Part shown: in pieces, positions 17,698-39,575 of the stretch
Position numbering within the stretch: position 1 is the stretch's first letter
Layout: every line of letters starts with the position of its first letter
Assembly (NCBI GenBank): GCA_029242705.1
Contig: JAQWTK010000096.1
Span: 42,148 to 106,147, forward strand
Reading direction: 5' to 3'
Origin: Gammaproteobacteria bacterium
GTDB lineage: Bacteria; Pseudomonadota; Gammaproteobacteria; Pseudomonadales; Pseudohongiellaceae
DNA: 64,000 nucleotides
Translations under genes and position numbers: made by a program
Notes under the pieces: model-generated
Databases searched by the model: none
What the model was told of the DNA's origin: nothing
Seen by the model: the letters and a program-made list of their open reading frames with translations, nothing else

Positions 17698-18837
17698 ATG
17701 CATGACCGAGCGATCTACAATAGTGATCATGAGCTTTTTCGCGCTAATGCGCGGCGTTTCTTTAGGGACGAACTAGAGCCAAATATAGACGAATGGGAGA
17801 AGGAAGGTCGCCTACCTCGAGAATTTTGGTTGAAGGCCGGAGAAAATGGATTTCATTGTTGTGGGGTTCCAGAAGAACACGGAGGGCCGGGCGCAGATTT
17901 TCTCTATAACATGGTGCTCTCAGAAGAAGTAGGTTTTGCGATAGGTGGTGCTAGCGTTGGTTTTTCAGTTTCCTCTGACATCGTCGCTTATTATTTATTG
18001 CATAGTGGAAGCGATGAACAGAAACAAAAATGGTTGCCTAAAATGGTTTCAGGGGAGGCTATTGCCGCGATTGGTATGACCGAACCTGGCTGTGGAAGTG
18101 ACCTTAAGGCAATGCGAACAACTGCGATACAAAAAGGTAGTGAATATATTATTAACGGGCAGAAAACTTTCATCACTAACGGCCAGAATTGTGATTTCGT
18201 TTTATTAGCTTGCTCGACAGATCCAGAGGCTGGTGCAAAAGGAGTTAGTCTCATAATTGTGGAAGCAGATCGAGAAGGTTTTAGCCGTGGTAGAAATTTA
18301 GAAAAAATCGGACAGAAAGCTGCTGATACTTCAGAGATGTTTTTCTCCGATGTACATGTTCCTGTTACTAACCTTATCGGTAAAGCCGGTGGGGGGTTTG
18401 CAGTGTTGATGAATGAACTGCCTAGAGAGCGCATTACGATAGCATGTCGTGCGTTGGCCGAAGCCCAACGTGCTTATGAATTAACCGTAGGCTATGTAAA
18501 AGAAAGAAAAGCGTTTGGGCAACAAGTCTACGAATTTCAGAATACTCAATTCAAGTTAGCAGAGATGAAAACCGATCTGGCTGTAGGGTGGTCCTATATC
18601 GATCAATGCTTGCTAAAAATTATTGAGGGATGTCTGACCCCTGAAGAAGGTGCGATGGCTAAATTATGGACCACTGAGGCTGGCAATAAAATAGTGGATG
18701 GCTGCTTACAACTTTTTGGCGGTTATGGATACATGAGTGAATATCCTATCTCTCGATTGTTCGTTGATTCTCGCGTAAGGCGCATTTATGGTGGGACATC
18801 GGAGATAATGAAATTAGTAATAGGAAGAACTGTTTAA
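17698..18837 (+). CDS. Acyl-CoA dehydrogenase (about 380 aa class)
   Basis: Has the ACAD N-terminal, middle and C-terminal domains, with GMTEPGCGSD and a C-terminal IYGGTSEI motif. Confidence 0.88.
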   Translation: MHDRAIYNSDHELFRANARRFFRDELEPNIDEWEKEGRLPREFWLKAGENGFHCCGVPEEHGGPGADFLYNMVLSEEVGFAIGGASVGFSVSSDIVAYYLLHSGSDEQKQKWLPKMVSGEAIAAIGMTEPGCGSDLKAMRTTAIQKGSEYIINGQKTFITNGQNCDFVLLACSTDPEAGAKGVSLIIVEADREGFSRGRNLEKIGQKAADTSEMFFSDVHVPVTNLIGKAGGGFAVLMNELPRERITIACRALAEAQRAYELTVGYVKERKAFGQQVYEFQNTQFKLAEMKTDLAVGWSYIDQCLLKIIEGCLTPEEGAMAKLWTTEAGNKIVDGCLQLFGGYGYMSEYPISRLFVDSRVRRIYGGTSEIMKLVIGRTV

Positions 18838-18847
18838 GAGGAATAGT

Positions 18848-20287
18848 ATGTTTGGGATCACTGCCTATGGTGCTTATGTACCACGTGCTAGGTTAAATAA
18901 AAAATCAATTGCTGAGGCTAATGCCTGGTTTGATGCAAGTCTAAACACCTTAGCTAAAGGTGAGCGGGCTATTTGTAACTGGGATGAAGATACAATAACT
19001 ATGGCGGTTGAGGCTGCAAATAACTGTCTAGTATCGAAAACTGGGATTGAGCTAAATTCTCTTTATTTGGCATCAACTACATTTCCATTCCTTGATCGAC
19101 AAAACTCGGTTCTGGTTAGTGAGGCCCTAAATCTTGATAGAGGAATCCGCACTATGGATATCGGGGCCTCGCAACGGGCCGCAACGTCATCGTTAATTTC
19201 ATTGCTTGAGTCGAAGTCAAAAAATAGCTCGCTTCTTATTGCTTCAGAGCATAGGAGAAGCAAGGCCGGCTCCAGAGCAGAGATGCTGTGGGGCGATGGT
19301 GCCGCATCCTTGTTAATCGGCTCAGATAAAGTAATTGCCGAATGTCTTGGCGTTGAAACTTATGCAATAGATTTTGTAGATCACTATAGGGGCGATGATT
19401 CGGATTACGATTATGATTGGGAAGAAAGGTGGATCCGAGATGAGGGGTTCTTAAAAACCGTTCCTAAGGCGGTTAATAACTTACTGGATTCGGCCAAGGT
19501 TAATGCCGCCGACATTAAACACTTCATTCTCCCTAGTGATCAGTCAAGAACTCCTGGTATTTTAGCGAAAAATCTAGGGATCGATCAGGGCGCCATCGTT
19601 GATAATCAAATTGCAAATGTTGGTGTAGCAGGAGTAGCTCAGCCAATATTATTACTGACTAAGGCATTAGAAGCCGCGTTGCCAGGAGAATACATATTAT
19701 TAGTTGGGTTTGGCCAAGGTTGTGATGCGATTCTTTTTAGGGCAACTGATGAGCTTGTTCATTATAAGCCGTTTATTGGGATCGAAGCGGCGATTAAGAA
19801 TCGGCGCGAGGAGTTGAACTATAATAAGTTTCTTAGCTTTAATAATTTAGTTGAAAAAGATATTGGTAAACGAGGGGAAGTCGATAAGCAGACCTATTTG
19901 TCTGGGTATAATCGAAGGAAAGATTTGCTGACTGGGTTTATTGGCGGAAAGTGCAGAGAATGCGGCACCGTGCAAATTCCGAGAGAAAAGTATTGTGTGA
20001 ATCCTGAATGCAACATGCTTGATAGTCAGGACGATTATCCATTTTCCGATAAGAAGGGCACCGTAGCAACCTGGACCGCTGATAGGTTGACGTTTGACTG
20101 GAATCCGCCGGCATATTTTGGCATGGTACAGTTTGAAGGTGGCGGTAAAATCATGATGGATTTTACGGAAGTTGAGGAAGGCACAATTGATACAGGTACT
20201 AAGGTATCAGTTCATTTCCGTATACGGCAGTTTGACACAGTACGGGGGTTTAAAAAATATTTCTGGAAAGCAGTTATCGAAGGCTAG
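18848..20287 (+). CDS. HMG-CoA-synthase/KAS-III-like thiolase-fold domain fused to a C-terminal DUF35 (zinc ribbon plus OB fold); probably non-catalytic
   Basis: The N-terminal 310 aa or so are collinear with HMG-CoA synthase. The nucleophile position reads GASQRAAT where the family has ACYGGT/ACYGAT. The C-terminus carries a 4-Cys ribbon, CRECGTVQIPREKYCVNPEC, followed by an OB-like segment. Confidence 0.7.
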   Translation: MFGITAYGAYVPRARLNKKSIAEANAWFDASLNTLAKGERAICNWDEDTITMAVEAANNCLVSKTGIELNSLYLASTTFPFLDRQNSVLVSEALNLDRGIRTMDIGASQRAATSSLISLLESKSKNSSLLIASEHRRSKAGSRAEMLWGDGAASLLIGSDKVIAECLGVETYAIDFVDHYRGDDSDYDYDWEERWIRDEGFLKTVPKAVNNLLDSAKVNAADIKHFILPSDQSRTPGILAKNLGIDQGAIVDNQIANVGVAGVAQPILLLTKALEAALPGEYILLVGFGQGCDAILFRATDELVHYKPFIGIEAAIKNRREELNYNKFLSFNNLVEKDIGKRGEVDKQTYLSGYNRRKDLLTGFIGGKCRECGTVQIPREKYCVNPECNMLDSQDDYPFSDKKGTVATWTADRLTFDWNPPAYFGMVQFEGGGKIMMDFTEVEEGTIDTGTKVSVHFRIRQFDTVRGFKKYFWKAVIEG

Positions 20288-20370
20288 TAGTATTTTTTTA
20301 TACAGAGTTGACAATTTGAGTTTATAACTTTCAATTTTAACAATTATTTATTAGAGGCGAGATAATAGAA

Positions 20371-21570
20371 ATGGCGAGTGGAATTAAAGATAAGGTTGTC
20401 ATTTTAGGCATGGGCTGTAGCAAATTTGGTGAACGCTGGGACTCCAGCCCATCGGATCTTATGGTCGAGGCGTTTGAGGAATGTATAGAAGACGCAGGCA
20501 TTGAACGAAACCAAATCGAAGCAGCTTGGTTTGGTGCCGGTATCGATGCGTTTAATGTCGGTGCTTCTGCTATGCCCTTAGCAATTGCTTTGCGGCTTAA
20601 CTATATTCCTGTGACTAAAGTCGAAAATATGTGCGCGACCGGGACTGAAGCTTTTCGCGGTGCAGTATATGCAGTTGCTTCTGGTGCTTGTGATATTGCT
20701 CTTGCCTTGGGCGTAGAAAAGCTTAAAGACACTGGATATGGGGGTCTACCGCAAAGATCGAGAGGACTGGAAAACGATATGTACTGGCCGAACTTATCAG
20801 CGCCGGGAGCTTTTGCACAACTAGCTACAGGTTATCGCGCCAAACATAAACACAATAAGGAAGACTTGAAGCGGGCAATGGCGCATGTTTCGGTAAAGAG
20901 CCACGCTAACGGAGCAAAAAACCCCAAAGCGCATTTGCAGAGGGAAATAACTTCTGACCAAGCGGTGAATGCGCCTTACATAGCCGAGCCAATCGGCCTA
21001 TTCGATTGTTGTGGTGTTAGTGATGGATCTGCCTGCGCAATCGTCACTACTCCAGAAATAGCTAAGGCCTTAGGTAAAGAAAACCTCGTTTCTGTAAAAG
21101 CATTACAATTAGCGGTTTCGAATGGAACAGAATCCAGCCATGAAAGTTGGGATGGTTCCTACCTAAAGACTACTCGTATTGCATCTCAACGGGCTTATGA
21201 TGAAGCGGGTATTCGAAAGCCAAAAGAAGAAATCACCATGACAGAGGTGCATGATTGTTTTTCTATTACCGAATTAGTGACGATGGAAGATCTTCAGTTA
21301 GCAGAGGAAGGGAAAGGAGTAACTGATGTTCTCGACGGTAATTTTGACGCCGATGGCAAAACCCCTTGTCAGATTGATGGGGGTCTCAAGTGTTTTGGTC
21401 ATCCAATAGGAGCATCTGGGTTACGAATGATTTACGAGAATTATCTTCAACTAAATGGAAGAGCTGGTTCTCGTCAGTTATCAGATCCTAAGCTAGGGTT
21501 AAACCATAATTTGGGAGGATTTCCACATCAAAACATTTGTTCTATTTCAATTGTTGGGCCCTACAACTAA
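20371..21570 (+). CDS. SCP-x/nonspecific lipid-transfer-type thiolase
   Basis: Nucleophile context NMCATGTEAF, the HDCF motif (TEVHDCFSITE) diagnostic of SCP2-type thiolases, and HPIGASG. Confidence 0.85.
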   Translation: MASGIKDKVVILGMGCSKFGERWDSSPSDLMVEAFEECIEDAGIERNQIEAAWFGAGIDAFNVGASAMPLAIALRLNYIPVTKVENMCATGTEAFRGAVYAVASGACDIALALGVEKLKDTGYGGLPQRSRGLENDMYWPNLSAPGAFAQLATGYRAKHKHNKEDLKRAMAHVSVKSHANGAKNPKAHLQREITSDQAVNAPYIAEPIGLFDCCGVSDGSACAIVTTPEIAKALGKENLVSVKALQLAVSNGTESSHESWDGSYLKTTRIASQRAYDEAGIRKPKEEITMTEVHDCFSITELVTMEDLQLAEEGKGVTDVLDGNFDADGKTPCQIDGGLKCFGHPIGASGLRMIYENYLQLNGRAGSRQLSDPKLGLNHNLGGFPHQNICSISIVGPYN

Positions 21571-21629
21571 TTACTGGAATTGAACGTTTCTCACTTTATT
21601 AAGCATTAACATCAATTAATCCAGCAAAA

Positions 21630-23309
21630 ATGCATGATAATAAATTAGCTCCATTAACAGAGACAGTTGCCAGTATCGATACCGCGAAGCATGTGCTTAA
21701 TTCACTTCACAAATTTGTGAATGTTGGGTTCCGGACGCTTAAAGCAACTTGTACGGTAAACGATAAACTAGATCTTAATTTATTAGACGAGTACCAGCTG
21801 GCTAGCTATGAACTCGCATTTTGTGAATCAGAAATTTCTGCAGCTAGTTCTTTTCTAGACTATTCCGAGCAATATAAGTCTGATTCGCTTGAGCAGAAGA
21901 TGTCACTTTTGTTTGCGGGCGATACATTTCAATCGGTTATTTCCAGATTAAAAACTGTTTCTACTGATGCTTGTTTGGATTGGGATGAAATAGTTGGGTT
22001 TGAAGGGAGTCAAGCTGTCCGAAATCTGATAGAAAATTGTAATTCGAATATTGTTGCTAGTTTGGGTGAGCGCATTTCAGAAGAAGAAATATCACGATTA
22101 CCGTCTGGGTTGGACGAAGAAAAAGAACTAGTGCGGGAAACTTTCCAGCGGTTCTCGGATGAAATAGTCGAGCCCCTTGCGGAAGAAATTCACCGTGAGG
22201 ACAAAGATATCCCACAAGTAATAATAGAGACTGCTGCAGATTTAGGCTGTTTTGGGACTTGTATCCCTGAGAAATATGGTGGACTACAACCAGACGAAGC
22301 CGCAGATAGTCTGAGCATGATTGTTGTTACCGAAGAGCTCTCTAGGGGCTCTCTTGGAGCGGCCGGCAGTTTAATTACCCGGCCAGAGATAGCCGCTCGA
22401 GCTTTATTGGCTGGTGGCACGGAAGACCAGCAACAAAATTGGTTACCAAGACTCGCCGCTGGAAAAATTCTTTGCGCTATTTCAATTACGGAGCCTGATA
22501 CCGGATCCGATGTGGCAGCAGTAACTCTAAAAGCGAAAGCTAGGGAAGGGGGCTGGTTGCTTAATGGTAATAAAACTTGGTGCACATTTGCAGGGCGCTC
22601 AGAGTTAATTATGATGCTTTGTCGCACAAACCCCGATTTATCCTTGGGCTACAAAGGCCTTAGTATGTTTTTAATAGAAAAGCCTTCTTTCTCTGGACAT
22701 CAATTTGAGCATCGTCAGGACGGTGGAGGAAAATTAACTGGTAAAGCTATTGCTACACTTGGTTATAGAGGTATGCATTCGTTCGATCTATTTTTCGAAG
22801 ATTATTTTGTCCCAACAGATAGCTTGTTAGGAGGAAAAGAAGGAGAAGGGAGGGGGTTTTACTACACGATGGCTGGATTTTCTGGCGGCCGCATTCAAAC
22901 AGCGGCTAGGGCAACTGGATTGATGCAAGCAGCATTCGACAGAGCTCTTAATTACTCGAAAGAGCGTAGCGTATTCGATAAAACACTGAATCAATTTCAG
23001 CTTACGCAAATAAAATTAGCAAGAATGTTGGCTACTATTAACGCCTGTCGCCAGTTTAGTTATTCGGTGGCTCGGCTAATGGACAACGGTGCAGGGCAGA
23101 TGGAGGCGAGTTTGGTGAAGTTATTCAGTTGTCGAGCGGCTGAGTGGGTAACGCGCGAGGCTATGCAGATACATGGTGGGATGGGCTATGCGGAAGAAAG
23201 TGCAGTATCCCGTTACTTTGCTGATGCCAGAGTGCTTTCAATTTTTGAAGGAGCCGAAGAGGTTCTTGCCCTTAAGGTAATCGCAAGGGAACTTGTACGG
23301 AACATATAA
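21630..23309 (+). CDS. Acyl-CoA dehydrogenase with an N-terminal extension of about 170 aa
   Basis: An ACAD core from about residue 170 (ITEPDTGSD, C-terminal IFEGAEEV), preceded by a helical extension without recognisable motifs. Confidence 0.8.
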   Translation: MHDNKLAPLTETVASIDTAKHVLNSLHKFVNVGFRTLKATCTVNDKLDLNLLDEYQLASYELAFCESEISAASSFLDYSEQYKSDSLEQKMSLLFAGDTFQSVISRLKTVSTDACLDWDEIVGFEGSQAVRNLIENCNSNIVASLGERISEEEISRLPSGLDEEKELVRETFQRFSDEIVEPLAEEIHREDKDIPQVIIETAADLGCFGTCIPEKYGGLQPDEAADSLSMIVVTEELSRGSLGAAGSLITRPEIAARALLAGGTEDQQQNWLPRLAAGKILCAISITEPDTGSDVAAVTLKAKAREGGWLLNGNKTWCTFAGRSELIMMLCRTNPDLSLGYKGLSMFLIEKPSFSGHQFEHRQDGGGKLTGKAIATLGYRGMHSFDLFFEDYFVPTDSLLGGKEGEGRGFYYTMAGFSGGRIQTAARATGLMQAAFDRALNYSKERSVFDKTLNQFQLTQIKLARMLATINACRQFSYSVARLMDNGAGQMEASLVKLFSCRAAEWVTREAMQIHGGMGYAEESAVSRYFADARVLSIFEGAEEVLALKVIARELVRNI

Positions 23310-23362
23310 TTTGCTAGTTCGAAATTTAGTTTCAAATATTTATATAAGGAAGAATTTGAATA

Positions 23363-24277
23363 ATGAGTGTCCTACTAAAAGATAAAGTTGTCATAGTAAC
23401 CGGGGCTGGTCGTGGTATTGGTCGAGGTATTGCGCTAATGGCGGCGGCTAATGGTGCAAAAGTTGTTGTTAACGATCTAGGTGGAGCAGAAGATGGTTCA
23501 GGGTCTGATGTTAGTCCTGCAGATGAAGTGGTTACGGAAATAAATTCCTTGGGAGGCGAGGCAATTTCTTCATATGCAAGCGTAACTGAATGGGATGCGG
23601 CGCACGATATTGTGGAAACAGCGGTAAATAATTTTGGGCGTGTCGATTGTGTTGTTAATAATGCCGGTAATCTTCGTGACGCAATTTTTCATAAAATGAC
23701 AGAAGAAGAATTTGACTCGGTTATAAATGTCCATCTAAAAGGAACCTTTAATGTTAGTAGGGCAGCTGCAACGCATTTTCGCGCTCAAACTAGTGGTTGT
23801 TTCGTTAATATGACATCTACTTCGGGATTAATTGGGAATTTTGGGCAGGCAAATTATGCTGCCGCGAAACTTGGCATAGTTGGACTTTCGAAATCTATGG
23901 CGCTTGATATGGGTCGATTTAGGGTCAGATCTAATTGTATTGCTCCATTTGCTTGGAGTCGGCTAATCGGAACCATTCCTACAAATACTGAAGAAGAAAA
24001 GGCTCGTGTAGAAAAAATTCAACAGATGACGCCGGACAAGATAGCACCATTAGCTATTGCTTTATGCAGTGATGCCGCAAAAGATGTTTCCGGCCAAATA
24101 TTTGGTGTTCGAAATAATGAAATATTTTTATTTAATCATAATAGACCTATTCGTTTCGCTCACACAGCAGAGGGCTGGTCGCCTGATTCAGTTCTAGAAA
24201 GAGTTATTCCGGCATTCAATTCGGACTTCTCTCCACTGGAAAGATCGGGTGATGTCTTTAGCTGGGATCCAATGTAA
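23363..24277 (+). CDS. Short-chain dehydrogenase/reductase, MFE-2/Hsd4A-like (probable (3R)-hydroxyacyl-CoA dehydrogenase)
   Basis: TGAGRGIGRG cofactor motif, NNAG, and a catalytic YAAAK. The 304 aa length and C-terminal extension resemble the dehydrogenase part of multifunctional enzyme type 2. Confidence 0.8.
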   Translation: MSVLLKDKVVIVTGAGRGIGRGIALMAAANGAKVVVNDLGGAEDGSGSDVSPADEVVTEINSLGGEAISSYASVTEWDAAHDIVETAVNNFGRVDCVVNNAGNLRDAIFHKMTEEEFDSVINVHLKGTFNVSRAAATHFRAQTSGCFVNMTSTSGLIGNFGQANYAAAKLGIVGLSKSMALDMGRFRVRSNCIAPFAWSRLIGTIPTNTEEEKARVEKIQQMTPDKIAPLAIALCSDAAKDVSGQIFGVRNNEIFLFNHNRPIRFAHTAEGWSPDSVLERVIPAFNSDFSPLERSGDVFSWDPM

Positions 24278-24297
24278 AAGTAATAAAGAAGAGTCAA

Positions 24298-25161
24298 ATG
24301 GCTATCGATCCTGAAAAATTATTAAACCGCGAGTTTGGAACCATTCGTGATACTTATACCGAAAAAGATTGCATCCTTTACGCCCTAGGCGTGGGTATGG
24401 GTCTTGACCCTTTAGACGAAGAGTGTCTTAAATTTGTATATGAAGACGGGCTTAAAATACTGCCAAGCCAATCGGTGATAATGGCTCACCCGGGGTTCTG
24501 GGCGAAGGAAGAAGATACTGGCGTTGACTGGGTAAAAGTACTTCACGCGGGGCAAGAAATTATTTTTCACAATCCTATACCTCCATCTGCTACCGTTGAA
24601 GCAACGACGCGGATAACAGAAGTAACAGATAAAGGTGAAAGGGTCGGGGCGCTAATCAATTCAGAACGAATAGTAAGTGATATCAAGACTGGCATGGAAA
24701 TCTGTACGCTGATAACGACTATTCTAGCCAGGGGTGATGGCGGATTTGGCGGTGAAAGGAAAGTCTCGGCTTTCAAGCCTGATGTAATACCCATGAGGGA
24801 CCCTGACGATATTTGCGACCTGCCCACCTTGCCTCAGCAAGCGTTACTCTACCGCCTTTCGGGCGATTTCAACCCATTGCATGCTTCACCTACAGTGGCA
24901 AGGAATGCTGGATTTAAAGCTCCAATACTTCATGGACTTTGTACGTTTGGGGTAATGACCCATGCTCTAATTAAAATGTGTTGCGACTATGATCCTAGCC
25001 GGTTCAAACGAATGCGACTGCGATTCTCAGCGCCAGTTTATCCTGGCGAAACAATTCGTACAGAAATTTGGCACAACGACAATGAGATTGCTTTCCGCTG
25101 TAAGTCGCTTGAGCAAGGAAAAATTGTAATCAACAATGGCTACTTGCTCGTTGAAGGGTAA
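24298..25161 (+). CDS. MaoC-like double hot-dog (R)-specific enoyl-CoA hydratase (hydratase 2)
   Basis: Hydratase-2 motif YRLSGDFNPLHASPTVA in the C-terminal hot-dog. The 287 aa length fits a double hot-dog. Confidence 0.85.
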   Translation: MAIDPEKLLNREFGTIRDTYTEKDCILYALGVGMGLDPLDEECLKFVYEDGLKILPSQSVIMAHPGFWAKEEDTGVDWVKVLHAGQEIIFHNPIPPSATVEATTRITEVTDKGERVGALINSERIVSDIKTGMEICTLITTILARGDGGFGGERKVSAFKPDVIPMRDPDDICDLPTLPQQALLYRLSGDFNPLHASPTVARNAGFKAPILHGLCTFGVMTHALIKMCCDYDPSRFKRMRLRFSAPVYPGETIRTEIWHNDNEIAFRCKSLEQGKIVINNGYLLVEG

Positions 25162-25174
25162 GTAGGAAAAGACA

Positions 25175-26386
25175 TTGCAGCATATTTTAAAGGGAATGCG
25201 AGTAGTAGAGGGCAGCGCTTTTATAGCGGCGCCCTCTGGCGGTATGACTCTGGCTCAGTTGGGGGCCGACGTTATTCGATTTGATCAAATCGGTGGCGGT
25301 ATAGATTATCATAGGTGGCCAATTACGGTTGAAGGCAAAAGCCTTTATTGGCATTCGCTTAACAAAGGTAAGCGATCAATTGCTATCGATTTACGCAATC
25401 CAACTGGGCGCGAACTTATCCAAAACCTCATTACCGATGCGGGTAAAAATAGCGGTCTATTTGTAACCAATTTTCCAGCAAAAGGATTCTTAGCAGATGA
25501 AGTGTTACGGGCTAAAAGGAATGACCTTATTTATATTAATCTAACCGGCGATCGTCATGGAGGAAGTGCGTTAGATTATACCGTAAACAGTAAAGTAGGT
25601 CTGCCCTATCTAAGTGGCGATGGGGGTAAACCTATAAATAACCCATTCCCAGCTTGGGATGTTATAGCGGGACAACAAATTGCCATCGCTCTTTTGGCGG
25701 CAGAGCGCCATCGGCGTCAATCTTCTGAAGGACAATTTGTAAAGTTAGCATTGGCTGATGTAGCTCTTGCAACTATGGGGCATCTCGGTTTTGTTGCTGA
25801 GGCGCAACTAAATGAAGAAGCAAGGCAACCGGTTGGTAATCATATTTATGGTACATTTGGCCATGATTTTAAGTGTAAAGATGGCCGTCGAGTGATGGTT
25901 GTCGGTGTAAGCCCTAATCAATGGAAATCCCTGATTAAAGTAACTAGCACTGAAGATCAAATAGCGTCTTTAGAAAAAAAGCTTAAGCTCAATTTTTCCA
26001 ATGAAGGAGATCGATTCAAGGCGAGGGAAGAAATATATAATCTTTTCGCCCCATGGTTTTCTGAGAATTCCTTTAATGAAGCTAAGATGGCTATGGAGGA
26101 TAATGGGGTTTGTTGGGGACCTTACCAAACGGTGTCAGAATTAATAAAAAGTGATCCAGACTGTTCGGTCAATAACCCGTTATTCTCGTTGATAAATCAA
26201 CCAGGTATTGGCGAATACCTAGTCCCGTCACAAGCGATTAAATTTACCGATCTTGAATCCGAAGCTCCTGCTCCTGCTCCTTTGCTTGGCCAACACACCG
26301 ATGAAATACTTTCAGAAATACTTAGTTTAGGCAGTGCTGAGATCGGTAAATTACATGATGAGAAAATTGTTGCCGGTCCAAAATAG
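25175..26386 (+). CDS. Family III CoA-transferase fold (CaiB/BaiF/alpha-methylacyl-CoA racemase family)
   Basis: N-terminal GMRVVEGS..AAPSGGMTLAQLGADVIRFD, collinear with the family. TTG start at 25175 with AGGAAA upstream; an alternative ATG lies at 25196. Confidence 0.72.
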   Translation: MQHILKGMRVVEGSAFIAAPSGGMTLAQLGADVIRFDQIGGGIDYHRWPITVEGKSLYWHSLNKGKRSIAIDLRNPTGRELIQNLITDAGKNSGLFVTNFPAKGFLADEVLRAKRNDLIYINLTGDRHGGSALDYTVNSKVGLPYLSGDGGKPINNPFPAWDVIAGQQIAIALLAAERHRRQSSEGQFVKLALADVALATMGHLGFVAEAQLNEEARQPVGNHIYGTFGHDFKCKDGRRVMVVGVSPNQWKSLIKVTSTEDQIASLEKKLKLNFSNEGDRFKAREEIYNLFAPWFSENSFNEAKMAMEDNGVCWGPYQTVSELIKSDPDCSVNNPLFSLINQPGIGEYLVPSQAIKFTDLESEAPAPAPLLGQHTDEILSEILSLGSAEIGKLHDEKIVAGPK

Positions 26387-26404
26387 TAAAATAACAAGTA
26401 AAGA

Positions 26405-28000
26405 ATGAGTACAAAAATTCACCAAAATGTTTCAATTGTTGATTTTCTTTTTGAGGCGGCGGAAGCATGGCCAAATAAACCAGCTGTTAGTTTTTTAGGT
26501 AAGACCCAATCCTGGCTAGAGACAAAGTATCGATGTCACGCGGCGGCCACATTGCTTTCCGATGCTGGCGTGCAACGTGGGCACCGGGTCGCATATTTAG
26601 GTTTGAATTCGAATGTTTGTTTTGAAAGCTATTACTCCCCGGCATTGATTGGCGCAGTTATGGTGCCTATTAACTATCGTTTATCTCTTAGGGAAATGAT
26701 TGAATGTGTGGAAGATTGTGAGCCGCGAGTATTAATTGTTGATGAAAATCACATTGAGCAAGCTCGCCAATTAAAAGATAGTTGCGAAAGCTTACAAACC
26801 ATTATTTTTTTTGGAGATGAAGTTACTCCAAATGGAATGACTTCCTATGAGGAAGGCGTTCAAAGAATTATCTCTAGTGGGGCGTATTGTGAGTTAGCTC
26901 CAAGCAAGGGTGATGAGATTGTTATCATTTTTTATACTGGAGGCACCACCGGTCGCTCAAAAGGTGTCATGTTGAGTAATATTAATTTTAAGGTTAATAC
27001 TGATTGCTCAGTTCCGCTTTACCGTATGCAGAGACATTGGGTCTTTCTTATAATAGGGCCTTTATTTCATCTTGCCGCTGGATCTCGCGTTTTTAGTAGT
27101 ACCGCACTTGGGGGTCACGCAGTGATCATGCCTAAATTTGATGTTGCCGGATTATTAGATGCAATTGATCGGTATAATATTAATTCGGCGACTCTCGTGC
27201 CGACAATGTACCAAATGATTTTAGATCATCCTCGGTTAGGGGAGTTTAATTTATCTTCTTTGAAGATGTTGGCTTCGGGGGCCGCACCATTATCTATTGG
27301 GCTCTTAGGTCGCATTGTAAAAGCGTTTCCCGAAACAGAATTCTTTCAAACATATGGTATGACGGAGGCCGCACCAATCCTTACAAGTCTCGATTCTAAA
27401 TATCAAGTGTTACATGGCCCAAATTCGCATAAACTGGGCTCAGTTGGTTTTCCGGTAGATCATATAGATCTTATCATTGCTAATGAGAGCGATCTCCCGT
27501 TACCTCCAAACAGTGTTGGTCAAATTTTGGCTAGAGGCCCCAATATTATGAAAGGATATTGGCAAATGCCTGAATTAACTAAAGAGGCATTGAAAGGGGG
27601 TTGGTTTCATACTGGAGATGCGGGCTATCTAGATGAGGATGGTTTTCTTTATTTAGAAGGTCGTGTTAAAGATATGATTGTGTCGGGTGGTGAGAATGTT
27701 TACCCCATTGAGGTAGAAAATATATTAGAGAACCACAATGCGATATACCAATGTGCAGTTATTGGAATCCCTCATGAAACGTGGGGAGAGGCTGTGCATG
27801 CCATAGTTGTTTTAAAGAAAGACTCCGAAGTTTCAGAGGGTGAACTCATAAGTTTTTGTAAGAACCAGATCGCGGGTTACAAATGTCCCGTGAGCATTAC
27901 CTTTCGGGAAGAACCGATGCCTTTATCTCCGATTAATAAAATTTTAAAAACGGAATTAAGGAAACCGTTTTGGAAGGGTCGAGATAGTTCTATCGTCTGA
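26405..28000 (+). CDS. AMP-dependent acyl-CoA synthetase/ligase
   Basis: AMP-binding motif YTGGTTGRSKGV, then GYLDEDGFLYLEGRVKDMIVSGGENVYP. Confidence 0.88.
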   Translation: MSTKIHQNVSIVDFLFEAAEAWPNKPAVSFLGKTQSWLETKYRCHAAATLLSDAGVQRGHRVAYLGLNSNVCFESYYSPALIGAVMVPINYRLSLREMIECVEDCEPRVLIVDENHIEQARQLKDSCESLQTIIFFGDEVTPNGMTSYEEGVQRIISSGAYCELAPSKGDEIVIIFYTGGTTGRSKGVMLSNINFKVNTDCSVPLYRMQRHWVFLIIGPLFHLAAGSRVFSSTALGGHAVIMPKFDVAGLLDAIDRYNINSATLVPTMYQMILDHPRLGEFNLSSLKMLASGAAPLSIGLLGRIVKAFPETEFFQTYGMTEAAPILTSLDSKYQVLHGPNSHKLGSVGFPVDHIDLIIANESDLPLPPNSVGQILARGPNIMKGYWQMPELTKEALKGGWFHTGDAGYLDEDGFLYLEGRVKDMIVSGGENVYPIEVENILENHNAIYQCAVIGIPHETWGEAVHAIVVLKKDSEVSEGELISFCKNQIAGYKCPVSITFREEPMPLSPINKILKTELRKPFWKGRDSSIV

Positions 28001-28025: not shown

Positions 28026-28649
28026 TTAACCAAAATTAATTTCTGGACTTAATTTAATTAAGTGGGTAACAAATTTTTCTAGAGCTTCGTATGGTTGACA
28101 ACCAACTAAAGTCAATTCATTGCTATAGAAAGTAGGAACACCAGTAATACCCATTTCACGCGAAAGAGCCCAGTCCTTATCCACGCTTTTTTTAAGGTCT
28201 CGATTGTCTAAAATCTTTTTTGCGGAATTTGGATCTAAACCAACTTCCCCAGCAATTTTAACTAACTCACTGGTTTTTCCAATATTCAAATTGCTTACAA
28301 AATAGGCTTCATATATTGAATTATGTATGGCTTCGCCATTGGGTTGACTATCAGCCCACTTGCCAAGTTCTTGAGCCAAGCGACTGTTGTAGGTATGAGA
28401 ACGATTTCCATAAGCCAGGCCAGCTTCTCGCATTAGCTTGCCCATATTCTCTTTCATTGGTGTTAAGTCACTACCGGGGAATAACTCTTCTAAAGTAATG
28501 CCTTCCTCCGGAGTTTGAGGATGTAGTGGGAAGTGTATCAAGCGAATTTTGATCGGATAATTCTTTTTTAGTTTTTCAATACTTACAGTATTGAGATAAC
28601 ACCAAGGTCAGACATAGTCGATAAATACGTCTAGTTCGATTTTCTTCAT
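28026..28649 (-). CDS. DsbA/FrnE-family thiol:disulfide oxidoreductase with an in-frame TGA at the first active-site Cys position (candidate selenoprotein, U-P-W-C)
   Basis: ATG at 28649 lies 2 nt after the stop of the upstream gene (TAACTATG). Translation gives MKKIELDVFIDYV-TGA-PWCYLNTVSIEKLKKNYPIKIRL and then runs in frame into the track ORF (IHFPLHPQTPEEG...GITGVPTF). The TGA is at 28608..28610. The total of 207 codons fits the family length. The track ORF (TTG at 28541) lacks the whole CxxC region. Confidence 0.6.
28576..28594 (-). other. Candidate bacterial SECIS hairpin
   Basis: mRNA sequence UCAAUAC-UGUAA-GUAUUGA: a perfect 7-bp stem and a 5-nt apical loop containing GU. It starts 13 nt 3' of the in-frame UGA. 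Confidence 0.4.
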
Positions 28650-28651
28650 AG

Positions 28652-30199
28652 TTATAGTTTTTCTCTAGGGATGAGTTTGACTATTTGACCACCCGCATTG
28701 TGTTCAAACAGTAAATAAATGTCGCCGTTATAGCCTTGTTCGATATCCCTGACACGTCCGATTCCCTCGAATAATGTTTCTTTTTCAACGAAGCGATTAT
28801 TTTCAATATCGACGCGGAAAAGGCTGCGAGATTTTAACGAGCCAACAATAAAATCCCCATGCCAATTAGGAAAACTTTCGCTGTCGCTAATTATAAAACT
28901 CGAAACGGCGGGAGACGGAGTTAAATCAACTATTGGTTGCATAATATCTGATAATTCAAATGCAATACCGAGGCCGCGGCCATTTACTAGGCTTCCGTCA
29001 TAATGTAATCCCATTGAATGCAGAGGCCAACCATAATTTTCTGCGGGCAGTAATCGATTTATTTCATCGCCACCACGAGGCCCATGCTCACTCCCCCATA
29101 ATTCGTTATTAACTAGATCATATTCTAGTCCTTGAGGGCTCCGATGCCCCAAGGTATAGATACTTTCATATACGTTTTCTACTCCAACGTAAGGATTATC
29201 GCTGGGAATAGATCCATCGTCATTGACCCGATGTGTTTTCCCACATGGAGTCGTTAGGTCTTGAATTCCCCCGCCTTGACCTCCGCATTTCATGCCTAAT
29301 GTAAAATAAACATGCCCTCGATTATCAAAAGTAACTCGACCTCCAGCACCAACATCGCCAGCAAAAAAATAGTCTTTAAACCGTGCCTGCCAAATAATTT
29401 CTTGGTCTACCCAGGTTCCATCTTCTATTCGCCCACGAACGAGTCTGTTCATAGAGACTGCTCGTTGTTCGTTTCTGCTAGCTTCATTACATTCGTTGCA
29501 GCGGTGGCTATGATAAAGATACACCCAGCCGTTTTCCTCGTAATGGGGATGCAGCACAATATCAAATAGCCAACCCATTCCTCTTTCAATATCGATACGC
29601 GATTCGAGTCGATAGATGTCATCATATGCAGCCGGGGTACCTGTTATTAGTTCAGATTTCTCTCCAGTGGGACTAATAATACGGACGCCCTTAGTTTTTT
29701 CTGTGAGCAGAAGGCTGCCATCGGGTAAGGGAGCAATTGAAAATGGAAGTGGATCTAAATCTGAAGCAATAGACTGTAGCTGGAAATCATGTAGCGAAGT
29801 TTCAAAAACTTTGCGGGGAATTTCCATGGGAGCATCATAATTTGAAGTTACATAGCCGACATTCGCGCGAGTTTCGAGTATGTACATGGCCAAGCCGCGA
29901 ATTTCAATAGGAGATAAGAGGTCACGCCAGCTTGGCATGCCCGCTTCTATATAACCTTCGCTGATACTCGTAATAATATCACTTATAGATTGGCCATTGG
30001 CTAATTCGCCTCTCAAAGACGATCCCTGAGCAGCACCGGTTAGGTCTTCTCCATGACAGACCCCGCAGTTCTCTTGAAACATGAGACGAGATTCTGTTAC
30101 TCCAGAATACGCCTCCGCTTCATCTTGAGCGAAAGAATTGTTTGCGGTTAATAAACTTATAAGGGGGAGGAAAATCCTAAATAAGAGCTTTTTATACAT
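28652..30199 (-). CDS. Exported cytochrome c domain fused to a PQQ-dependent sugar (glucose/sorbosone) dehydrogenase beta-propeller
   Basis: Signal peptide, haem c motif CGVCHGED, then sGDH-family motifs GHRSPQGL and EHGPRGGDEIN. Confidence 0.8.
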   Translation of the reverse strand: MYKKLLFRIFLPLISLLTANNSFAQDEAEAYSGVTESRLMFQENCGVCHGEDLTGAAQGSSLRGELANGQSISDIITSISEGYIEAGMPSWRDLLSPIEIRGLAMYILETRANVGYVTSNYDAPMEIPRKVFETSLHDFQLQSIASDLDPLPFSIAPLPDGSLLLTEKTKGVRIISPTGEKSELITGTPAAYDDIYRLESRIDIERGMGWLFDIVLHPHYEENGWVYLYHSHRCNECNEASRNEQRAVSMNRLVRGRIEDGTWVDQEIIWQARFKDYFFAGDVGAGGRVTFDNRGHVYFTLGMKCGGQGGGIQDLTTPCGKTHRVNDDGSIPSDNPYVGVENVYESIYTLGHRSPQGLEYDLVNNELWGSEHGPRGGDEINRLLPAENYGWPLHSMGLHYDGSLVNGRGLGIAFELSDIMQPIVDLTPSPAVSSFIISDSESFPNWHGDFIVGSLKSRSLFRVDIENNRFVEKETLFEGIGRVRDIEQGYNGDIYLLFEHNAGGQIVKLIPREKL

Positions 30200-35095: not shown

Positions 35096-36265
35096 TTAGG
35101 AAATTGTAATTGTCCGAGTAAATTGCGCATAGTTCTCCCAGCGACTAGCTTTTTCCGGCATTTCTTCCTCCGTTAGTTGCACATGCCCATTTATGTCAGT
35201 AGCGCGAGAGACAAGTGTGTGATCTCCGGGGGATGGATCCCAGTCCATAGTAAAAAGCTTCCATGAATAACGGGTTGATCTTGGATCTATAGTTGCTTCA
35301 CGCCAAGGTTCTCCATCGATCTTTATTTCGACATTACGAAGAGGCGTACCATCAGTTAACACAAACCCCGTTATTTTGTGCTGTGTGCCGAGACGCGTGA
35401 CACGAACAATGGCTGATTTTAATTGAATTTTGGTAACGGAATTTTCTACCCACCTCTCTTCTCCGCCAATCATTTCTTTCTTTAAGGTTACATAATCGCG
35501 GCCCATAAAACGGCCCATGTAACGTCTGTCTTGGATATGAATTTGCGTCAACCACTTAACATTTGCCACACCGTAATAACCCGGTACAACTAAACGTAGT
35601 GGGCGGCCATGCCCTTGTGGCAAATCTTCACCATTCATTTCGAGGGCTAGTATATTCTCTTCTCGCATCGCTTCCGCGACTGGTAGACTTCGAGCAAAAG
35701 ATTGCTCGACTTCGGTATCTCTGTTGGGAATTTCCTCAGTCCCGCTATCCGCGCCAAAAAATACTACTTCCGCACCGTCAGAATTGACTCCGCTTGCATT
35801 AAGAATGTCTCTCAGTCGAACTCCTTTCCAATTCGCATTGCCAACTAGACCTTGAAATCTACCGGTATTGTTTCCACCACATTCGAAACCAGCATCAATA
35901 TCGAACTGACTCATGTTTTGTAAATCTTCTAATGTGTATTCAAGCTCTTGATCTACTAACCCGGTTACCTTAAGCCTATAGTTATCTATATCCATCTCCG
36001 GCTGGCCATAATGTTGGACAACGTAGAAGTCCATATTGTCCGTATAGAAATCAGAAATCATTCTAGTATCTAACCAATGCGGTGCTCCTGGTCGAGCGGG
36101 GCCTCTGCTATAGTCTTCTGGCATATCACTAAATGATACTAGTTCTTCTCCTTGCGCTAAGGCAGGAAGTATCCAATGGGGCACGCTAGCCACTGCACTC
36201 GCCGAGACGCCTGCGCCGATTGTCTTCTTAATTGCCTCTCGTCTATTAATTTTTTCATCGTTCAT
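35096..36265 (-). CDS. Tat-exported sulfite-oxidase-fold (SorA-like) molybdopterin oxidoreductase
   Basis: Twin-arginine signal (NRREAIKK..ALAQ), Mo-ligand Cys context FECGGNN, PLRLVVPGYYGVANVKWL as in SorA, and a C-terminal Ig-like dimerisation domain. Confidence 0.8.
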   Translation of the reverse strand: MNDEKINRREAIKKTIGAGVSASAVASVPHWILPALAQGEELVSFSDMPEDYSRGPARPGAPHWLDTRMISDFYTDNMDFYVVQHYGQPEMDIDNYRLKVTGLVDQELEYTLEDLQNMSQFDIDAGFECGGNNTGRFQGLVGNANWKGVRLRDILNASGVNSDGAEVVFFGADSGTEEIPNRDTEVEQSFARSLPVAEAMREENILALEMNGEDLPQGHGRPLRLVVPGYYGVANVKWLTQIHIQDRRYMGRFMGRDYVTLKKEMIGGEERWVENSVTKIQLKSAIVRVTRLGTQHKITGFVLTDGTPLRNVEIKIDGEPWREATIDPRSTRYSWKLFTMDWDPSPGDHTLVSRATDINGHVQLTEEEMPEKASRWENYAQFTRTITIS

Positions 36266-36292
36266 GGTCAGTTCCTCTAGTCTTTTTGTTCT

Positions 36293-36724
36293 TCAGTCTT
36301 TTGTATTTGAGAAATCGTAAGCTTTCCAATGGTCGGCCCGATATTGATTGGGGTCAGCTAAAACTTTAGATCGAGCCTTTGTAACTTCCTCAACTGTCAG
36401 TTTTTTGAAATCACTTGGAAGAGTTTTAGCATTGAACTCATCTAACATCCAATTCAATACATTAGTTAATTGCGCATTTGAAATCGGAGCATGCGCAGAA
36501 CCAGGCACTCTCGCTAAATAGCCTCGCATAGCTTCTACACTCATCATATAACCAAGTTCGTCGCGTAAGGTGGGGACATTGGGCGGGTTACCTTCGCCAA
36601 GTGGGCGATGGCATCCACTGCAATATAATAAATAATTTGTTCGCGGGCTAGCTGCAAAAACACTCGAGGTCAGGAGTGTGAAGACGACTGCTAAAAATGT
36701 AAGCCAAATCATCTTATCTTTCAT
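36293..36724 (-). CDS. Exported monohaem c-type cytochrome
   Basis: Signal peptide and a single CSGCH haem-binding motif. 143 aa. Lies between mauA and the molybdoenzyme on the same strand. Confidence 0.75.
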   Translation of the reverse strand: MKDKMIWLTFLAVVFTLLTSSVFAASPRTNYLLYCSGCHRPLGEGNPPNVPTLRDELGYMMSVEAMRGYLARVPGSAHAPISNAQLTNVLNWMLDEFNAKTLPSDFKKLTVEEVTKARSKVLADPNQYRADHWKAYDFSNTKD

Positions 36725-36728
36725 TGTT

Positions 36729-37265
36729 CTATTCGTCAGACGCGCCTATTACTAGAGAGACCGTACAGTGATAGCTAGTATTTTCTGTGCCAAAGCACCA
36801 GAGGACAGTACTGCTATTACTATTGAAATATACTGGTTTATCACCTTCAGTGTTGTGACAACTACAGCGAGCGCATACGGCTTTTCCACAACAATCGTTG
36901 TATGACATCAGGTAGTCCCGTCCGTCAACTGGATTAGTACAGGTTCCAACCCAAGTTATAGGCGAGGCCTCTGATCCAGGAGGGCAAGAAGTATAGGTCC
37001 CCCCGCAGCATGTGCAGAGTGTTCCGCTCATAGCGCAATAGCGCCAGTAATCGCAGCTTTGTGGATCGCCGATTTCTTCTATAGATTCTTGTGCAAACGA
37101 ACGAGACACTGGTAGTAATGGGAAGGAGGCTGCACCAGCGACGAACATACCCAGTCTGGAAAGGAAGTGCCTTCTTGACAACTTACGAGCCATAGTCAGG
37201 GTAGTGCGTCGAGCGTGATCATCTATCCAGTAGTATGCTTTATCGATTATTTTGTCTATTTTCAT
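36729..37265 (-). CDS. mauA: TTQ amine dehydrogenase small (light) subunit
   Basis: Tat-type leader (SRRHFLS), then QSCDYWRYC..CPPGS..ITWVGTC..YNDCCG..NTEG..PVY..VLWCFG..YHCT. This is collinear with Paracoccus MauA, including both TTQ Trp positions. Confidence 0.88.
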   Translation of the reverse strand: MKIDKIIDKAYYWIDDHARRTTLTMARKLSRRHFLSRLGMFVAGAASFPLLPVSRSFAQESIEEIGDPQSCDYWRYCAMSGTLCTCCGGTYTSCPPGSEASPITWVGTCTNPVDGRDYLMSYNDCCGKAVCARCSCHNTEGDKPVYFNSNSSTVLWCFGTENTSYHCTVSLVIGASDE

Positions 37266-37936
37266 GACGTCTGTTCCACTGCTGATGTTTCGTATTTTGA
37301 GTCGACAGAGTCCAGTTGAGTACTAACATATTCTTGTACAGTAGCTACACCAGTATCCATGGACTCGATTAAACTTTCTAGATGCTCTCTTGTATTGACG
37401 AGGCCTTTGCTTTTTAAGGTCCCGTCAGGTCCGATTAGTACGGCAAACGGAAGTTTACTCACTTGATAATACATACCCACGGATTGAGATACAAAATAAG
37501 GATAGGTCTCTATCTTTAAATCTTTAATATAAGTTTTGTGTTGTTCGATATCTTCGCCATCACTACCGAATGCCAAGCTCAATCGGTTATTCTCAGATTT
37601 TGCTAAGGATTTTGCAGTTGGCACTAGGGTCTTGCATACTGGGCAAGTTGGCGAAATAAATAATATCAGAGACGCAAGATTTTCTTTATTGGCGCCACCA
37701 ATCGTAATAGTTTCGCCTTGCAATGAATTCGTTTGGATATCTTTTGTAATTTCGCCCACCTTTGGTCCCGTCGTTGGTTGTAAGGCTCCGGCTGGAGCGA
37801 CACGCTCATGAAGAATACCAACTTGCCGAGTTAGCGCGAATACGAGTACCGATAAAAAGACGACCATAATCCAAAGAATTATGGTCGAGACAAATAAGGC
37901 TTCAACCACTAACTTTTCTCCAGGAGTCAATAGCAT
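37262..37936 (-). CDS. mauD: MauD-like thioredoxin-fold accessory protein
   Basis: N-terminal TM anchor and the thioredoxin-like motif SPTCPVCK. Sits between mauE and mauA. ATGA overlap with mauA. Confidence 0.75.
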   Translation of the reverse strand: MLLTPGEKLVVEALFVSTIILWIMVVFLSVLVFALTRQVGILHERVAPAGALQPTTGPKVGEITKDIQTNSLQGETITIGGANKENLASLILFISPTCPVCKTLVPTAKSLAKSENNRLSLAFGSDGEDIEQHKTYIKDLKIETYPYFVSQSVGMYYQVSKLPFAVLIGPDGTLKSKGLVNTREHLESLIESMDTGVATVQEYVSTQLDSVDSKYETSAVEQTS

Positions 37937-38462
37937 TTCGATTGCTGAGCAATTGGTTGGTAGCTAGGTAAATAAACAAGATGCTTATCAAGCCTATAAA
38001 AATACTGAAATAATCCAACAAGCCCAGATCTCTCGTTGTAGAAGGAAATACCGCCATAAGCGCCACAATAATTAAAGTGAAATTTCTCAGAACTAAGCCG
38101 GTAGAAAGGCGCTGATTACCGTTATCTTTATTTCCCGCGAACGCAGCATAACTGCAGCCACAATCTATATAACTTCTTCCTTTGTAAAGATTAATTGAGA
38201 TCGCTATAACATAAATTGAGAGCACCAAAGCACTCAATAAAGGAACCAAGGCTAGGTTGTTAAACAACCAGCCAATCCCGAGGAACAATTCAGTTAAACC
38301 GATTCCGATAGCAAAAAAACCTACTCCTCTCGAGGGAAGCACCTTATATTCACTAACAATTTGTTGAAATTGTAAGCGGTTAGACAATTTATGAGCACCC
38401 CCAATCAAAAATAGGAGGCTGAAGGCTATCGATACTAGGGTTTGAATGGCAGGGTCTATCAT
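37902..38462 (-). CDS. mauE: MauE-like membrane accessory protein
   Basis: Hydrophobic protein with four or more TM segments, 186 aa. Sits between mauB and mauD, and its 3' end overlaps mauD. Confidence 0.7.
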   Translation of the reverse strand: MIDPAIQTLVSIAFSLLFLIGGAHKLSNRLQFQQIVSEYKVLPSRGVGFFAIGIGLTELFLGIGWLFNNLALVPLLSALVLSIYVIAISINLYKGRSYIDCGCSYAAFAGNKDNGNQRLSTGLVLRNFTLIIVALMAVFPSTTRDLGLLDYFSIFIGLISILFIYLATNQLLSNRNAIDSWRKVSG

Positions 38463-38474
38463 TGGTCATTTATC

Positions 38475-39575
38475 TCATAAATCTTCAAATGCAGTGGACC
38501 CCGGAATTTGTATTGACCGCTCATAGGACAAGCTGAGAGCGTCATACACATGGGAGCCTCCTTCATTATCTACTACTAAAAGCTTTGGATTATCTTCTTG
38601 TGTAACCAAGATACTATTAGCTGGTGCTTCCAATTCAATTTTGCTTATACGACGTTGTGTGTTCGAATCTAACACCCATATTTCGGTCCCAGGCTCATGG
38701 TGCGAATCTACTGGGCCGTCGTGCATTGCCACATAAATTAAGCCAGTATCATGATGCGCAGTAATAATTTCGTTTCGACCTCCTGGGCGCCAATTTGCCT
38801 CTGACTCCAGGCGAGGATTCCAACCTTCGTCGATTATTATCTCATCGTCATCTGTGGCGACATGAAAGATTGTGCCGGCATGGGTAATTAGAAACCATCC
38901 GTTTGCGCTAGACGCAACTCGATCAAATACAGCATCTTCAAGTACGCTAAAGAAAACTTCGCTGCGGACCCTATTTTCTTCGAAGCCGCTTAAATCTAGC
39001 TGGATCAATTGTAGGGTGCCATCGCCACATACTTGCAGAAAGTCATTGTCGGAAACAGGCATAATTACTGCGCAACCAGGGGTTGATGCTTCGTAGGTAA
39101 ATATTCGATCTTCTACATCAACTATCGTCACCGAGTGGCCAGGGTTCATATTAAGAACCGCCAAATGTCGGCCATTATTAAGCAGCCCTAGATGGCTTCG
39201 GACCTGCAACCTTGCCATGTAATTGGGAATTTCAATCTCTGCGACCGGCCTTAGGTTTTCGTAGTCATAAATAGCAATAATGTCTGTTCGTTCACCGTGC
39301 ACGCCTCGTGAGAGATAAGACTCAGCGGCATAAAATTCTTCTCGTGGGGGCCAAAAGGTTACCGCTGGAGTATATCGGGAGAGCGATAACATACCTTGCA
39401 TCTCTCCGTTTGTTGCATCGAAAATGTAGCCACCATTCCTGGTCGTGCCAATAAACCAGTTTTTGCCGCGTTCGGGCATGGTTTCGACGCTAATTTCTTC
39501 AGGGGTGATTTGTGCTATTCCTAGCGGTGAAATAAGCAACAGACCTGCAGCGAGTGGGGCGATAAAGCGCATCAA
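38475..39575 (-). CDS. mauB: TTQ amine dehydrogenase large (heavy) subunit, seven-bladed propeller
   Basis: Signal peptide. GERTDIIAIYDYENLRPVAEIEIP and NWRPGG segments parallel Paracoccus MauB ([30 protein letters not shown]). Confidence 0.85.
   Translation of the reverse strand: MMRFIAPLAAGLLLISPLGIAQITPEEISVETMPERGKNWFIGTTRNGGYIFDATNGEMQGMLSLSRYTPAVTFWPPREEFYAAESYLSRGVHGERTDIIAIYDYENLRPVAEIEIPNYMARLQVRSHLGLLNNGRHLAVLNMNPGHSVTIVDVEDRIFTYEASTPGCAVIMPVSDNDFLQVCGDGTLQLIQLDLSGFEENRVRSEVFFSVLEDAVFDRVASSANGWFLITHAGTIFHVATDDDEIIIDEGWNPRLESEANWRPGGRNEIITAHHDTGLIYVAMHDGPVDSHHEPGTEIWVLDSNTQRRISKIELEAPANSILVTQEDNPKLLVVDNEGGSHVYDALSLSYERSIQIPGSTAFEDL

Follow-up and report, generated by a model that had tools for sequence, protein, structure and literature searches.

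A conserved in-frame TGA and downstream hairpin point to selenocysteine in the redox motif of a FrnE/DsbA-like protein from a Pseudohongiellaceae bacterium

A 64-kb stretch of a Pseudohongiellaceae genome (contig JAQWTK010000096.1, positions 42,148 to 106,147; hereafter the window) carries a DsbA-family gene with a TGA codon in frame at the first position of its CxxC-type redox motif. This raises the question of whether the TGA ends a protein, reflects an error or gene decay, or is translated, and if translated, as which amino acid. An earlier reading of the sequence alone (the sequence-only reading) had proposed selenocysteine (Sec, U) and a U-P-W-C motif. We addressed the question by comparing the gene, its TGA and the RNA hairpin that follows it with those of its relatives. 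The TGA is real, and the window gene very probably encodes a Sec-containing FrnE/DsbA-like protein.

The gene and the conservation of its TGA

The minus strand of the window reads ...AAACTATAACT ATG AAG AAA ATC GAA CTA GAC GTA TTT ATC GAC TAT GTC TGA CCT TGG TGT TAT CTC... across the start of the gene. Conceptual translation of 28026..28649 gives MKKIELDVFIDYV*PWCYLNTVSIEKLKKNYPIKIRLIHFPLHPQ..., with 207 sense codons and one internal stop, and runs into an open reading frame (ORF) that a mechanical ORF list starts at TTG 28541. That list leaves 110 nucleotides (nt) unassigned between 28541 and the next gene. Translation confirmed the 207-codon frame from ATG 28649 that the sequence-only reading had put forward. 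Only 5 more in-frame codons lie upstream of this ATG before a stop is reached, and the orthologues in related loci start at the equivalent position. The exact 171-aa product of the listed ORF has no record in the public protein collection, nor does the exact 515-aa product of the neighbouring gene.

With Cys placed at the stop, residues 6-193 match positions 2-189 of the 191 in the Pfam DSBA profile (PF01323, E=7e-30), in line with the earlier claim that the full length fits the family. As the match already starts at residue 6, the domain is complete only with the 5' extension, which supplies its first strand and redox helix. The U-P-W-C motif (residues 14-17) directly follows the first strand. 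Its resolving cysteine, Cys17 (TGT), is retained as the sequence-only reading had stated, and this codon is invariant as Cys in Sec-form genes (TGT 70, TGC 9). Elsewhere in the window TGA serves as an ordinary stop, again as previously noted: the 54 long ORFs end in TAA (28), TAG (16) or TGA (10), which indicates the standard genetic code and a recoding that is local. No second recoded gene was found in two passes over the window, which has a GC content of 42%.

To place the gene among its relatives, we used a protein search of approximately 5.8 billion proteins, which at E<=1e-10 returned 7,731 relatives (the best 120 were inspected), and a DNA set of the 80 closest loci among species-representative genomes. 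The codon at the Sec position is TGA in 78 of the 80 loci and TGC in the other two (L057 and L062). The frame is open on all 80 loci, and the peptide before the codon is conserved (LDVFTDYV/I). This conservation of the TGA is far beyond chance. The carriers are metagenome-assembled genomes (MAGs) and single-cell genomes labelled Pseudohongiella or Pseudohongiellaceae, OM182, Pseudomonadales, 'SAR86' NORP66 and Gammaproteobacteria, with some labelled Alphaproteobacteria/Rhodospirillaceae or Burkholderiales. The loci nearest to the window gene (L034, L048, L050 and L056) come from Pseudohongiellaceae/OM182-type marine Gammaproteobacteria. Among the 80 nearest genomes, then, it is the Sec form and not the Cys form that dominates, which would imply that these aerobes maintain the whole Sec machinery.

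Two further comparisons bear on the identity of this codon. An alignment check bore out the earlier placement of the TGA at the first Cys of the CxxC motif: Cys is aligned with it in seven Cys-form homologues (P0032, P0056, P0090, P0105, P0106, L057 and L062) and in Deinococcus radiodurans FrnE. A strain whose protein is 96% identical (P0001) is represented by 8 independently assembled contigs, drawn from Tara Oceans, Logan and NCBI, on which the genes are ordered as in the window. Each of the 8 keeps the TGA and carries an identical hairpin, with one conservative change (D7E) before the TGA.

Gene callers had been expected to truncate this gene, and they do so throughout the family. Among the best 120 of the 7,731 relatives, 113 start downstream of the TGA, 105 of them at (M/V)SIEKLK, 8 codons past the TGA position, and the remaining 8 further downstream; the 96%-identical entry P0001 is itself a truncated form. 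Five of the 120 read DYVCPWCY and two (P0003 and P0004) read DYVWPWCY. The first 48 residues of P0004 match locus L015, where the codon is TGA, so the Trp of P0004 is a TGA read under a table in which TGA means Trp. At E<=1e-10 the full-length protein had no NCBIfam match. Because standard annotation fails for this family, redox and functional inventories of marine heterotrophs likely miss an oxidoreductase that bears its active site.

A hairpin under RNA-level selection

In the window, a hairpin begins 13 nt past the UGA. It has the form UCAAUACU-GUA-AGUAUUGA, with 8 bp and an apical loop GUA that exposes G25 and U26 (counted from the U of the UGA). The relatives share the element CUC AGU ACC GUG AGU AUU GAA, with a 7-bp stem (UCAGUAC/GUAUUGA) that includes one G.U pair and a loop CGUGA. 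The folding energy of the hairpin is unremarkable against shuffled sequences (z = -1.15 and -1.29). As the fold alone cannot be told apart from shuffles, the argument was moved to comparative data. Scans of the window with Rfam (at the gathering threshold) and ARAGORN gave no match; Rfam is not known to have a general model of the bacterial selenocysteine insertion sequence (SECIS), so the Rfam result says little.

Across the 78 Sec-form sequences, 99.8% of stem cells are paired, compared to 27-44% when the 3' partners are slid. The few changes in the stem are one-sided and keep the pairing (G.U to A-U or G-C, C-G to U.G). No double compensatory changes occur within the subfamily in these 78 sequences, so that support for the hairpin at this level consists of conservation. 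Codon choice shows the same constraint: Leu18 is CTC in 77 of 79 genes, and the genes are uniform in using AGT for Ser19 (76 of 76) and ATT for Ile23 (78 of 78), compared to 1.8-2.3 bits for 4- to 6-fold degenerate codons outside the hairpin. Relative synonymous entropy falls to 0.155 in codons 18-24, whereas the remaining codons have 0.867 +/- 0.13. No other 7-codon window of the gene is as low, and 100,000 random draws gave no value equally low. The GC content at third codon positions ranges from 0.31 to 0.89 across the Sec-form genes.

Covariation appears when the comparison is widened to three divergent Sec-DsbA-like genes from a 2005 supplement, sequences that we picked ourselves and on which the result rests: the hairpins are in the same register with different stems, and 4 of 7 pairs show compensatory double changes. 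At this family level, 97.6% of cells are paired, and the observed values were reached by 0-2 of 500 shuffles. In the loop, G25 is invariant and U26 is conserved except in 8 loci with a GGG loop, six of them labelled Alphaproteobacteria or Rhodospirillaceae, together with L071 (Pseudomonadales) and L074 (Gammaproteobacteria). In the Cys-form genes L057, L062, L089, L091 and L092 the hairpin is degraded or absent. The conserved hairpin is under RNA-level selection.

The loop G-U (28584..28589 on the minus strand, codons 20-21) supplies the first two bases of the Val21 codon. Residue 21 is Val in most Sec forms, the divergent published ones among them (TVS/TVR/TVG); the GGG-loop loci have Gly (GGG) here, and the Cys-form relatives have Pro, Ala or Asn. 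Thus, the SECIS RNA signal appears to dictate a protein residue.

It should also be noted that the Sec-form gene, with a nearly identical SECIS (GGG or GUG loop), is found in MAGs labelled Alphaproteobacteria/Rhodospirillaceae and Burkholderiales (L058, L063, L065 and L069-L080). Three origins are suggested by this distribution: the gene and its SECIS moved together by horizontal transfer, they go back to an old common source, or the MAGs contain binning errors.

How the TGA is read

In the reading that we favour, the 28649..28026 product would be a 207-residue FrnE-type member of the DsbA family with a U14-P-W-C17 redox centre replacing C-P-W-C. The UGA at 28610..28608 would be read as selenocysteine in translation. 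The hairpin 13 nt downstream (nt 17-35, with G25-U26 exposed) would act as a bacterial SECIS element, recruiting SelB-GTP-Sec-tRNA(Sec) to the ribosome as the UGA enters the A site. The protein would then work as a thiol/selenol-disulfide oxidoreductase or a reductase-isomerase and cycle via a U14-C17 selenenylsulfide, with Sec as a stronger nucleophile than the Cys of FrnE. A redox motif that begins at residue 14 leaves no room for a signal peptide, which predicts a cytoplasmic location. Sec insertion, SelB dependence, cytoplasmic location and reductase-isomerase activity are what we infer for this protein.

Several points weigh against this reading. None of selA, selB, selD and tRNA-Sec was found in the 64-kb window or in the approximately 0.9 Mb of flanks of the 80 loci, which are small parts of the genomes; the search used tblastn with E. 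coli SelA, SelB and SelD (probes validated at 621-920 bits) and ARAGORN. The hairpin is energetically unremarkable, has no equivalent of the bulged U17 of the E. coli fdhF SECIS, varies at U26 in the GGG-loop loci, and shows double compensatory changes only when our three chosen divergent sequences are included. The predicted activity and location are carried over from FrnE at modest similarity. Finally, a 2026 review places this family outside its 'Experimentally verified' block and cites for it only the prediction paper of 2005 (PMC13188914).

The first of these points also favours Sec-independent recoding, in which the hairpin would help a near-cognate or suppressor tRNA (Trp, Cys, Gly or Arg) to read through the UGA with neither SelB nor Sec. 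No Sec machinery was found for any carrier in the sequence searched, the hairpin differs from the E. coli SECIS in its missing bulged U and its 2-nt offset, and conservation alone does not identify the inserted residue. However, the recoded position is exactly the catalytic Cys, which is TGC in sister genes, and this is a classic Sec/Cys pair. The position of the hairpin and the G in its apical loop fit the bacterial SECIS definition of published surveys, and TGA is an ordinary stop elsewhere in the window. Furthermore, a CxxC oxidoreductase with Trp or Gly in place of its nucleophile would be inactive, and if Cys were wanted TGC would be simpler. We consider Sec-independent recoding very unlikely. 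If it were true, aerobic marine Proteobacteria would have kept, over deep divergences, a UGA and a hairpin whose effect is read-through without Sec at a catalytic position. Much more likely is a subfamily in which Sec is all but fixed among Pseudohongiellaceae/OM182-type bacteria (78 of the 80 nearest species), with a frozen SECIS common to Alpha- and Betaproteobacteria-labelled MAGs and a loop G-U that dictates Val21.

A second alternative takes the annotated, truncated protein at face value. Translation would start downstream, at TTG 28541 or at the M/V of (M/V)SIEKLK, the first 13 codons would be a leader peptide, and the stop and hairpin would be regulatory. Most relatives do have GTG or ATG at codon 21, and 113 among the best 120 are annotated in this way, but codon 21 of the window gene is GTA, which is not a start. 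The shortened protein would be without the first strand and redox helix of the DSBA domain, which the profile matches from residue 6. Both frame and peptide are maintained before the TGA as well as after it, PWCY never varies in the stretch from the TGA to the supposed start, and the Cys-form homologues encode one continuous protein. This makes a genuine truncated product very unlikely. While one base separates TGA from TGC or TGT, and the TGA is known here from an assembly and not from reads, a pseudogene or a sequencing or assembly error is effectively refuted by the TGA in the genomes of 78 of 80 species and in 8 independent sister-strain assemblies, and by a gene with no other stop or frameshift whose amino acids are conserved while its synonymous sites are saturated.

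Genomic context and comparison with known systems

Table 1. Features of the selenoprotein locus and its neighbours in the window.
Feature	Coordinates	Strand	Description	Basis
FrnE/DsbA-like selenoprotein coding sequence (predicted)	28026..28649	-	207 codons + TAA stop; U = codon 14	translation
ATG start	28647..28649	-	2 nt past the TAA of the upstream gene (TAACTATG)	sequence
In-frame TGA, predicted selenocysteine codon	28608..28610	-	residue 14, first position of U-P-W-C	
TGT, resolving Cys17	28599..28601	-	UxxC redox motif	sequence + translation
Predicted bacterial SECIS hairpin	28576..28594	-	nt 17-35 from the U of UGA	fold + comparative data
Truncated ORF	28026..28541	-	TTG start, 171 aa, without redox motif	mechanical ORF list
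Cys184 (TGT)	28098..28100	-	third Cys, VGCQPY motif	alignment column
GSDH (glucose/sorbosone-type) dehydrogenase fused to cytochrome c domain	28652..30199	-		Pfam GSDH E=2e-83 + Cytochrome_CBB3
Acyl-coenzyme A (CoA) metabolism gene run	17698..28000	+	convergent with the selenoprotein gene; syntenic in about half of related loci	

The sequence-only reading had suggested translational coupling of the selenoprotein gene to the gene upstream. The spacing behind that idea stands, as the ATG does lie 2 nt past the upstream TAA, but the arrangement is clade-specific: the GSDH dehydrogenase-cytochrome c gene lies directly upstream in 10 of the 80 loci. The two genes probably form an operon in the window's clade only. 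A divergent tetratricopeptide repeat (TPR) gene is present in 49 of the 80 loci; going upstream from the Sec codon, the median distance to the nearest aligned end of this gene is 296 nt. A functional link via the neighbourhood was considered and rejected, as the acyl-CoA neighbours are on the other strand, the TPR gene is divergent, and the dehydrogenase is found in so few loci.

The acyl-CoA run encodes two acyl-CoA dehydrogenases, an HMG-CoA-synthase-like/thiolase-associated protein, a thiolase, a short-chain dehydrogenase/reductase, a MaoC-type hydratase and an acyl-CoA ligase. It also encodes a CoA-transferase close to 2-methylfumaryl-CoA isomerase, with a score below the cut-off of that model. 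Further away, at 35096..39575 on the minus strand, lies a methylamine dehydrogenase (mau) cluster with ORFs of 366, 186, 224, 178, 143 and 389 aa. The sequence-only reading had named a mauD gene, and the mau assignment is supported by the annotation of sister contig L081, where Pfam gives, in order, Me-amine-dh_H, MauE, Thioredoxin_8 (MauD-like), Me-amine-dh_L, no hit and Oxidored_molyb. Overlaps of a few bases occur between several mau genes. The TGA of the 143-aa ORF at 36293 is in frame with the next gene; recoding was rejected there, as that gene has its own twin-arginine-type signal (MNDEKINRREAIKK...). Positions 9559..10478 (approximately 920 bases) contain no ORF of at least 120 aa on either strand, no tRNA and no Rfam match.

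The nearest solved structure to the window protein is D. radiodurans FrnE (DR_0659; PDB 5CNW and 5E59), with E=7e-17 for 5CNW over residues 2-187 and the CPWCY of FrnE aligned to U-PWCY, so that residues 14-17 fall on FrnE residues 22-25. According to its published description, FrnE is a thiol oxidoreductase of predicted cytoplasmic location that acts as a disulfide isomerase and reductase in vitro and contributes to the tolerance of cadmium and diamide (PMC8945050). The FrnE subfamily (cd03024) is defined by an N-terminal CP(W/F)C in a DsbA-like domain and by the lack of a signal peptide (PMC8945050). The window protein shares the DsbA-family thioredoxin domain, the lack of a signal peptide and a motif of the CP(W/F)C type, with Sec for the first Cys. 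It differs from FrnE in length (207 residues versus 260 in the solved chain) and in its C-terminus, ...FVTHLIKLSPEINFG, which has no Cys and so no CxxxxC tail. The CxxxxC of FrnE has been proposed to regenerate the active site and is absent from the FrnE proteins of S. roseofulvus and D. maricopensis (PMC8945050); since some FrnE homologues do without it, this motif does not strictly define the subfamily. The window protein has instead an invariant Cys184, kept in 25 of 25 aligned homologues (4 true Cys forms, 2 entries with TGA read as Trp and 19 truncated entries that start downstream of the redox motif), where FrnE has Ala (aligned sgAqap). In a subfamily without the C-terminal CxxxxC, one might speculate that Cys184 has a role in active-site regeneration.

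Similarity to the periplasmic DsbA of E. coli is more limited. Both proteins belong to PF01323 and have a CxxC-type motif that opens the first helix. The E. coli motif is CPHC, whereas that of the window protein is of the CPWC type, and the window protein has no signal peptide. With the motif starting at residue 14, a periplasmic oxidase role is unlikely. PDB matches to periplasmic DsbA-like proteins are marginal (E ~1e-4).

The candidate SECIS can be compared with that of E. coli fdhF, in which the upper stem-loop begins 11 nt past the UGA, with G23/U24 in the loop and a bulged U17 (PMC8659212). Both are stem-loops in the coding region just past the UGA and expose a G-U in a small apical loop. 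The window element lies 2 nt further downstream (loop G25/U26, start 13 nt past the UGA), and its stem is unrelated in sequence and fully paired, with one G.U pair and no equivalent of U17; SelB binding is predicted. The Sargasso Sea survey describes the bacterial element as a stem-loop directly past the UGA with a G in a small apical loop (PMC1088965), and the window hairpin has this form.

DsbA-like Sec/Cys pairs from marine metagenomes, which the sequence-only reading had mentioned, are indeed in the literature (PMC1088965, PMC2398784). The selenoproteome of the Sargasso Sea (Zhang, Fomenko & Gladyshev 2005) lists a 'DsbA-like protein, COG2761, UXXC' with 9 sequences and draws its SECIS (PMC1088965). 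The Global Ocean Sampling (GOS) survey (Zhang & Gladyshev 2008) gives, in its entries for 'DsbA 1, pfam01323, UxxC', 63 selenoproteins in 23 samples and 704 Cys homologues, and reports the family as commoner in marine samples (PMC2398784). Reviews of 2022 and 2026 (PMC13188914) name a 'DsbA-like protein (form 1)' in their family lists, the latter with PF01323. In a 2006 survey, DsbA-like selenoproteins are reported from a small number of anaerobes, which have SelD as well (PMC1794560). None of the mentions of the family that we retrieved from papers of 2005, 2008, 2021, 2022 and 2026 assigns it to the Pseudohongiellaceae or OM182 or describes a subfamily nearly fixed for Sec in these lineages, and our literature search found no paper connecting Pseudohongiella or OM182 with Sec.

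With our data, the marine 'DsbA 1' selenoprotein known from the GOS and Sargasso surveys can be linked to named lineages, namely Pseudohongiellaceae, OM182 and relatives. To this link with lineages dominated by the Sec form the data add quantitative SECIS evidence and the scale of the mis-annotation. A short, sharply defined SECIS, in a family listed outside the verified selenoproteins, makes the gene a convenient candidate for a first experimental test. The current understanding of selenoproteins is unchanged by the window gene and, since the family has been published since 2005, the find is not surprising to a specialist.

The closest published sequence, AACY01028493 of the 2005 supplement (MKKYNLKVFIDYIuPWCYLSTVSIEKLK...), is an orthologue with 67% identity to the window protein over 194 aa (E=1e-99), and it shares the TGA and the hairpin DNA with the window gene. 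Two other entries, AACY01601659 and AACY01473751, belong to the same subfamily. All sequence-level features that define DsbA-like form 1, namely the domain, the UxxC TGA, the Sec/Cys pair, the hairpin and homology, were found in the window gene. Judged by its sequence, it joins, as a new member, a family of selenoproteins known since 2005. It has the same Pfam domain as the published proteins, U-P-W-C at the same N-terminal position and the same downstream hairpin DNA, and it differs from them in nothing of kind, only in being a new sequence.

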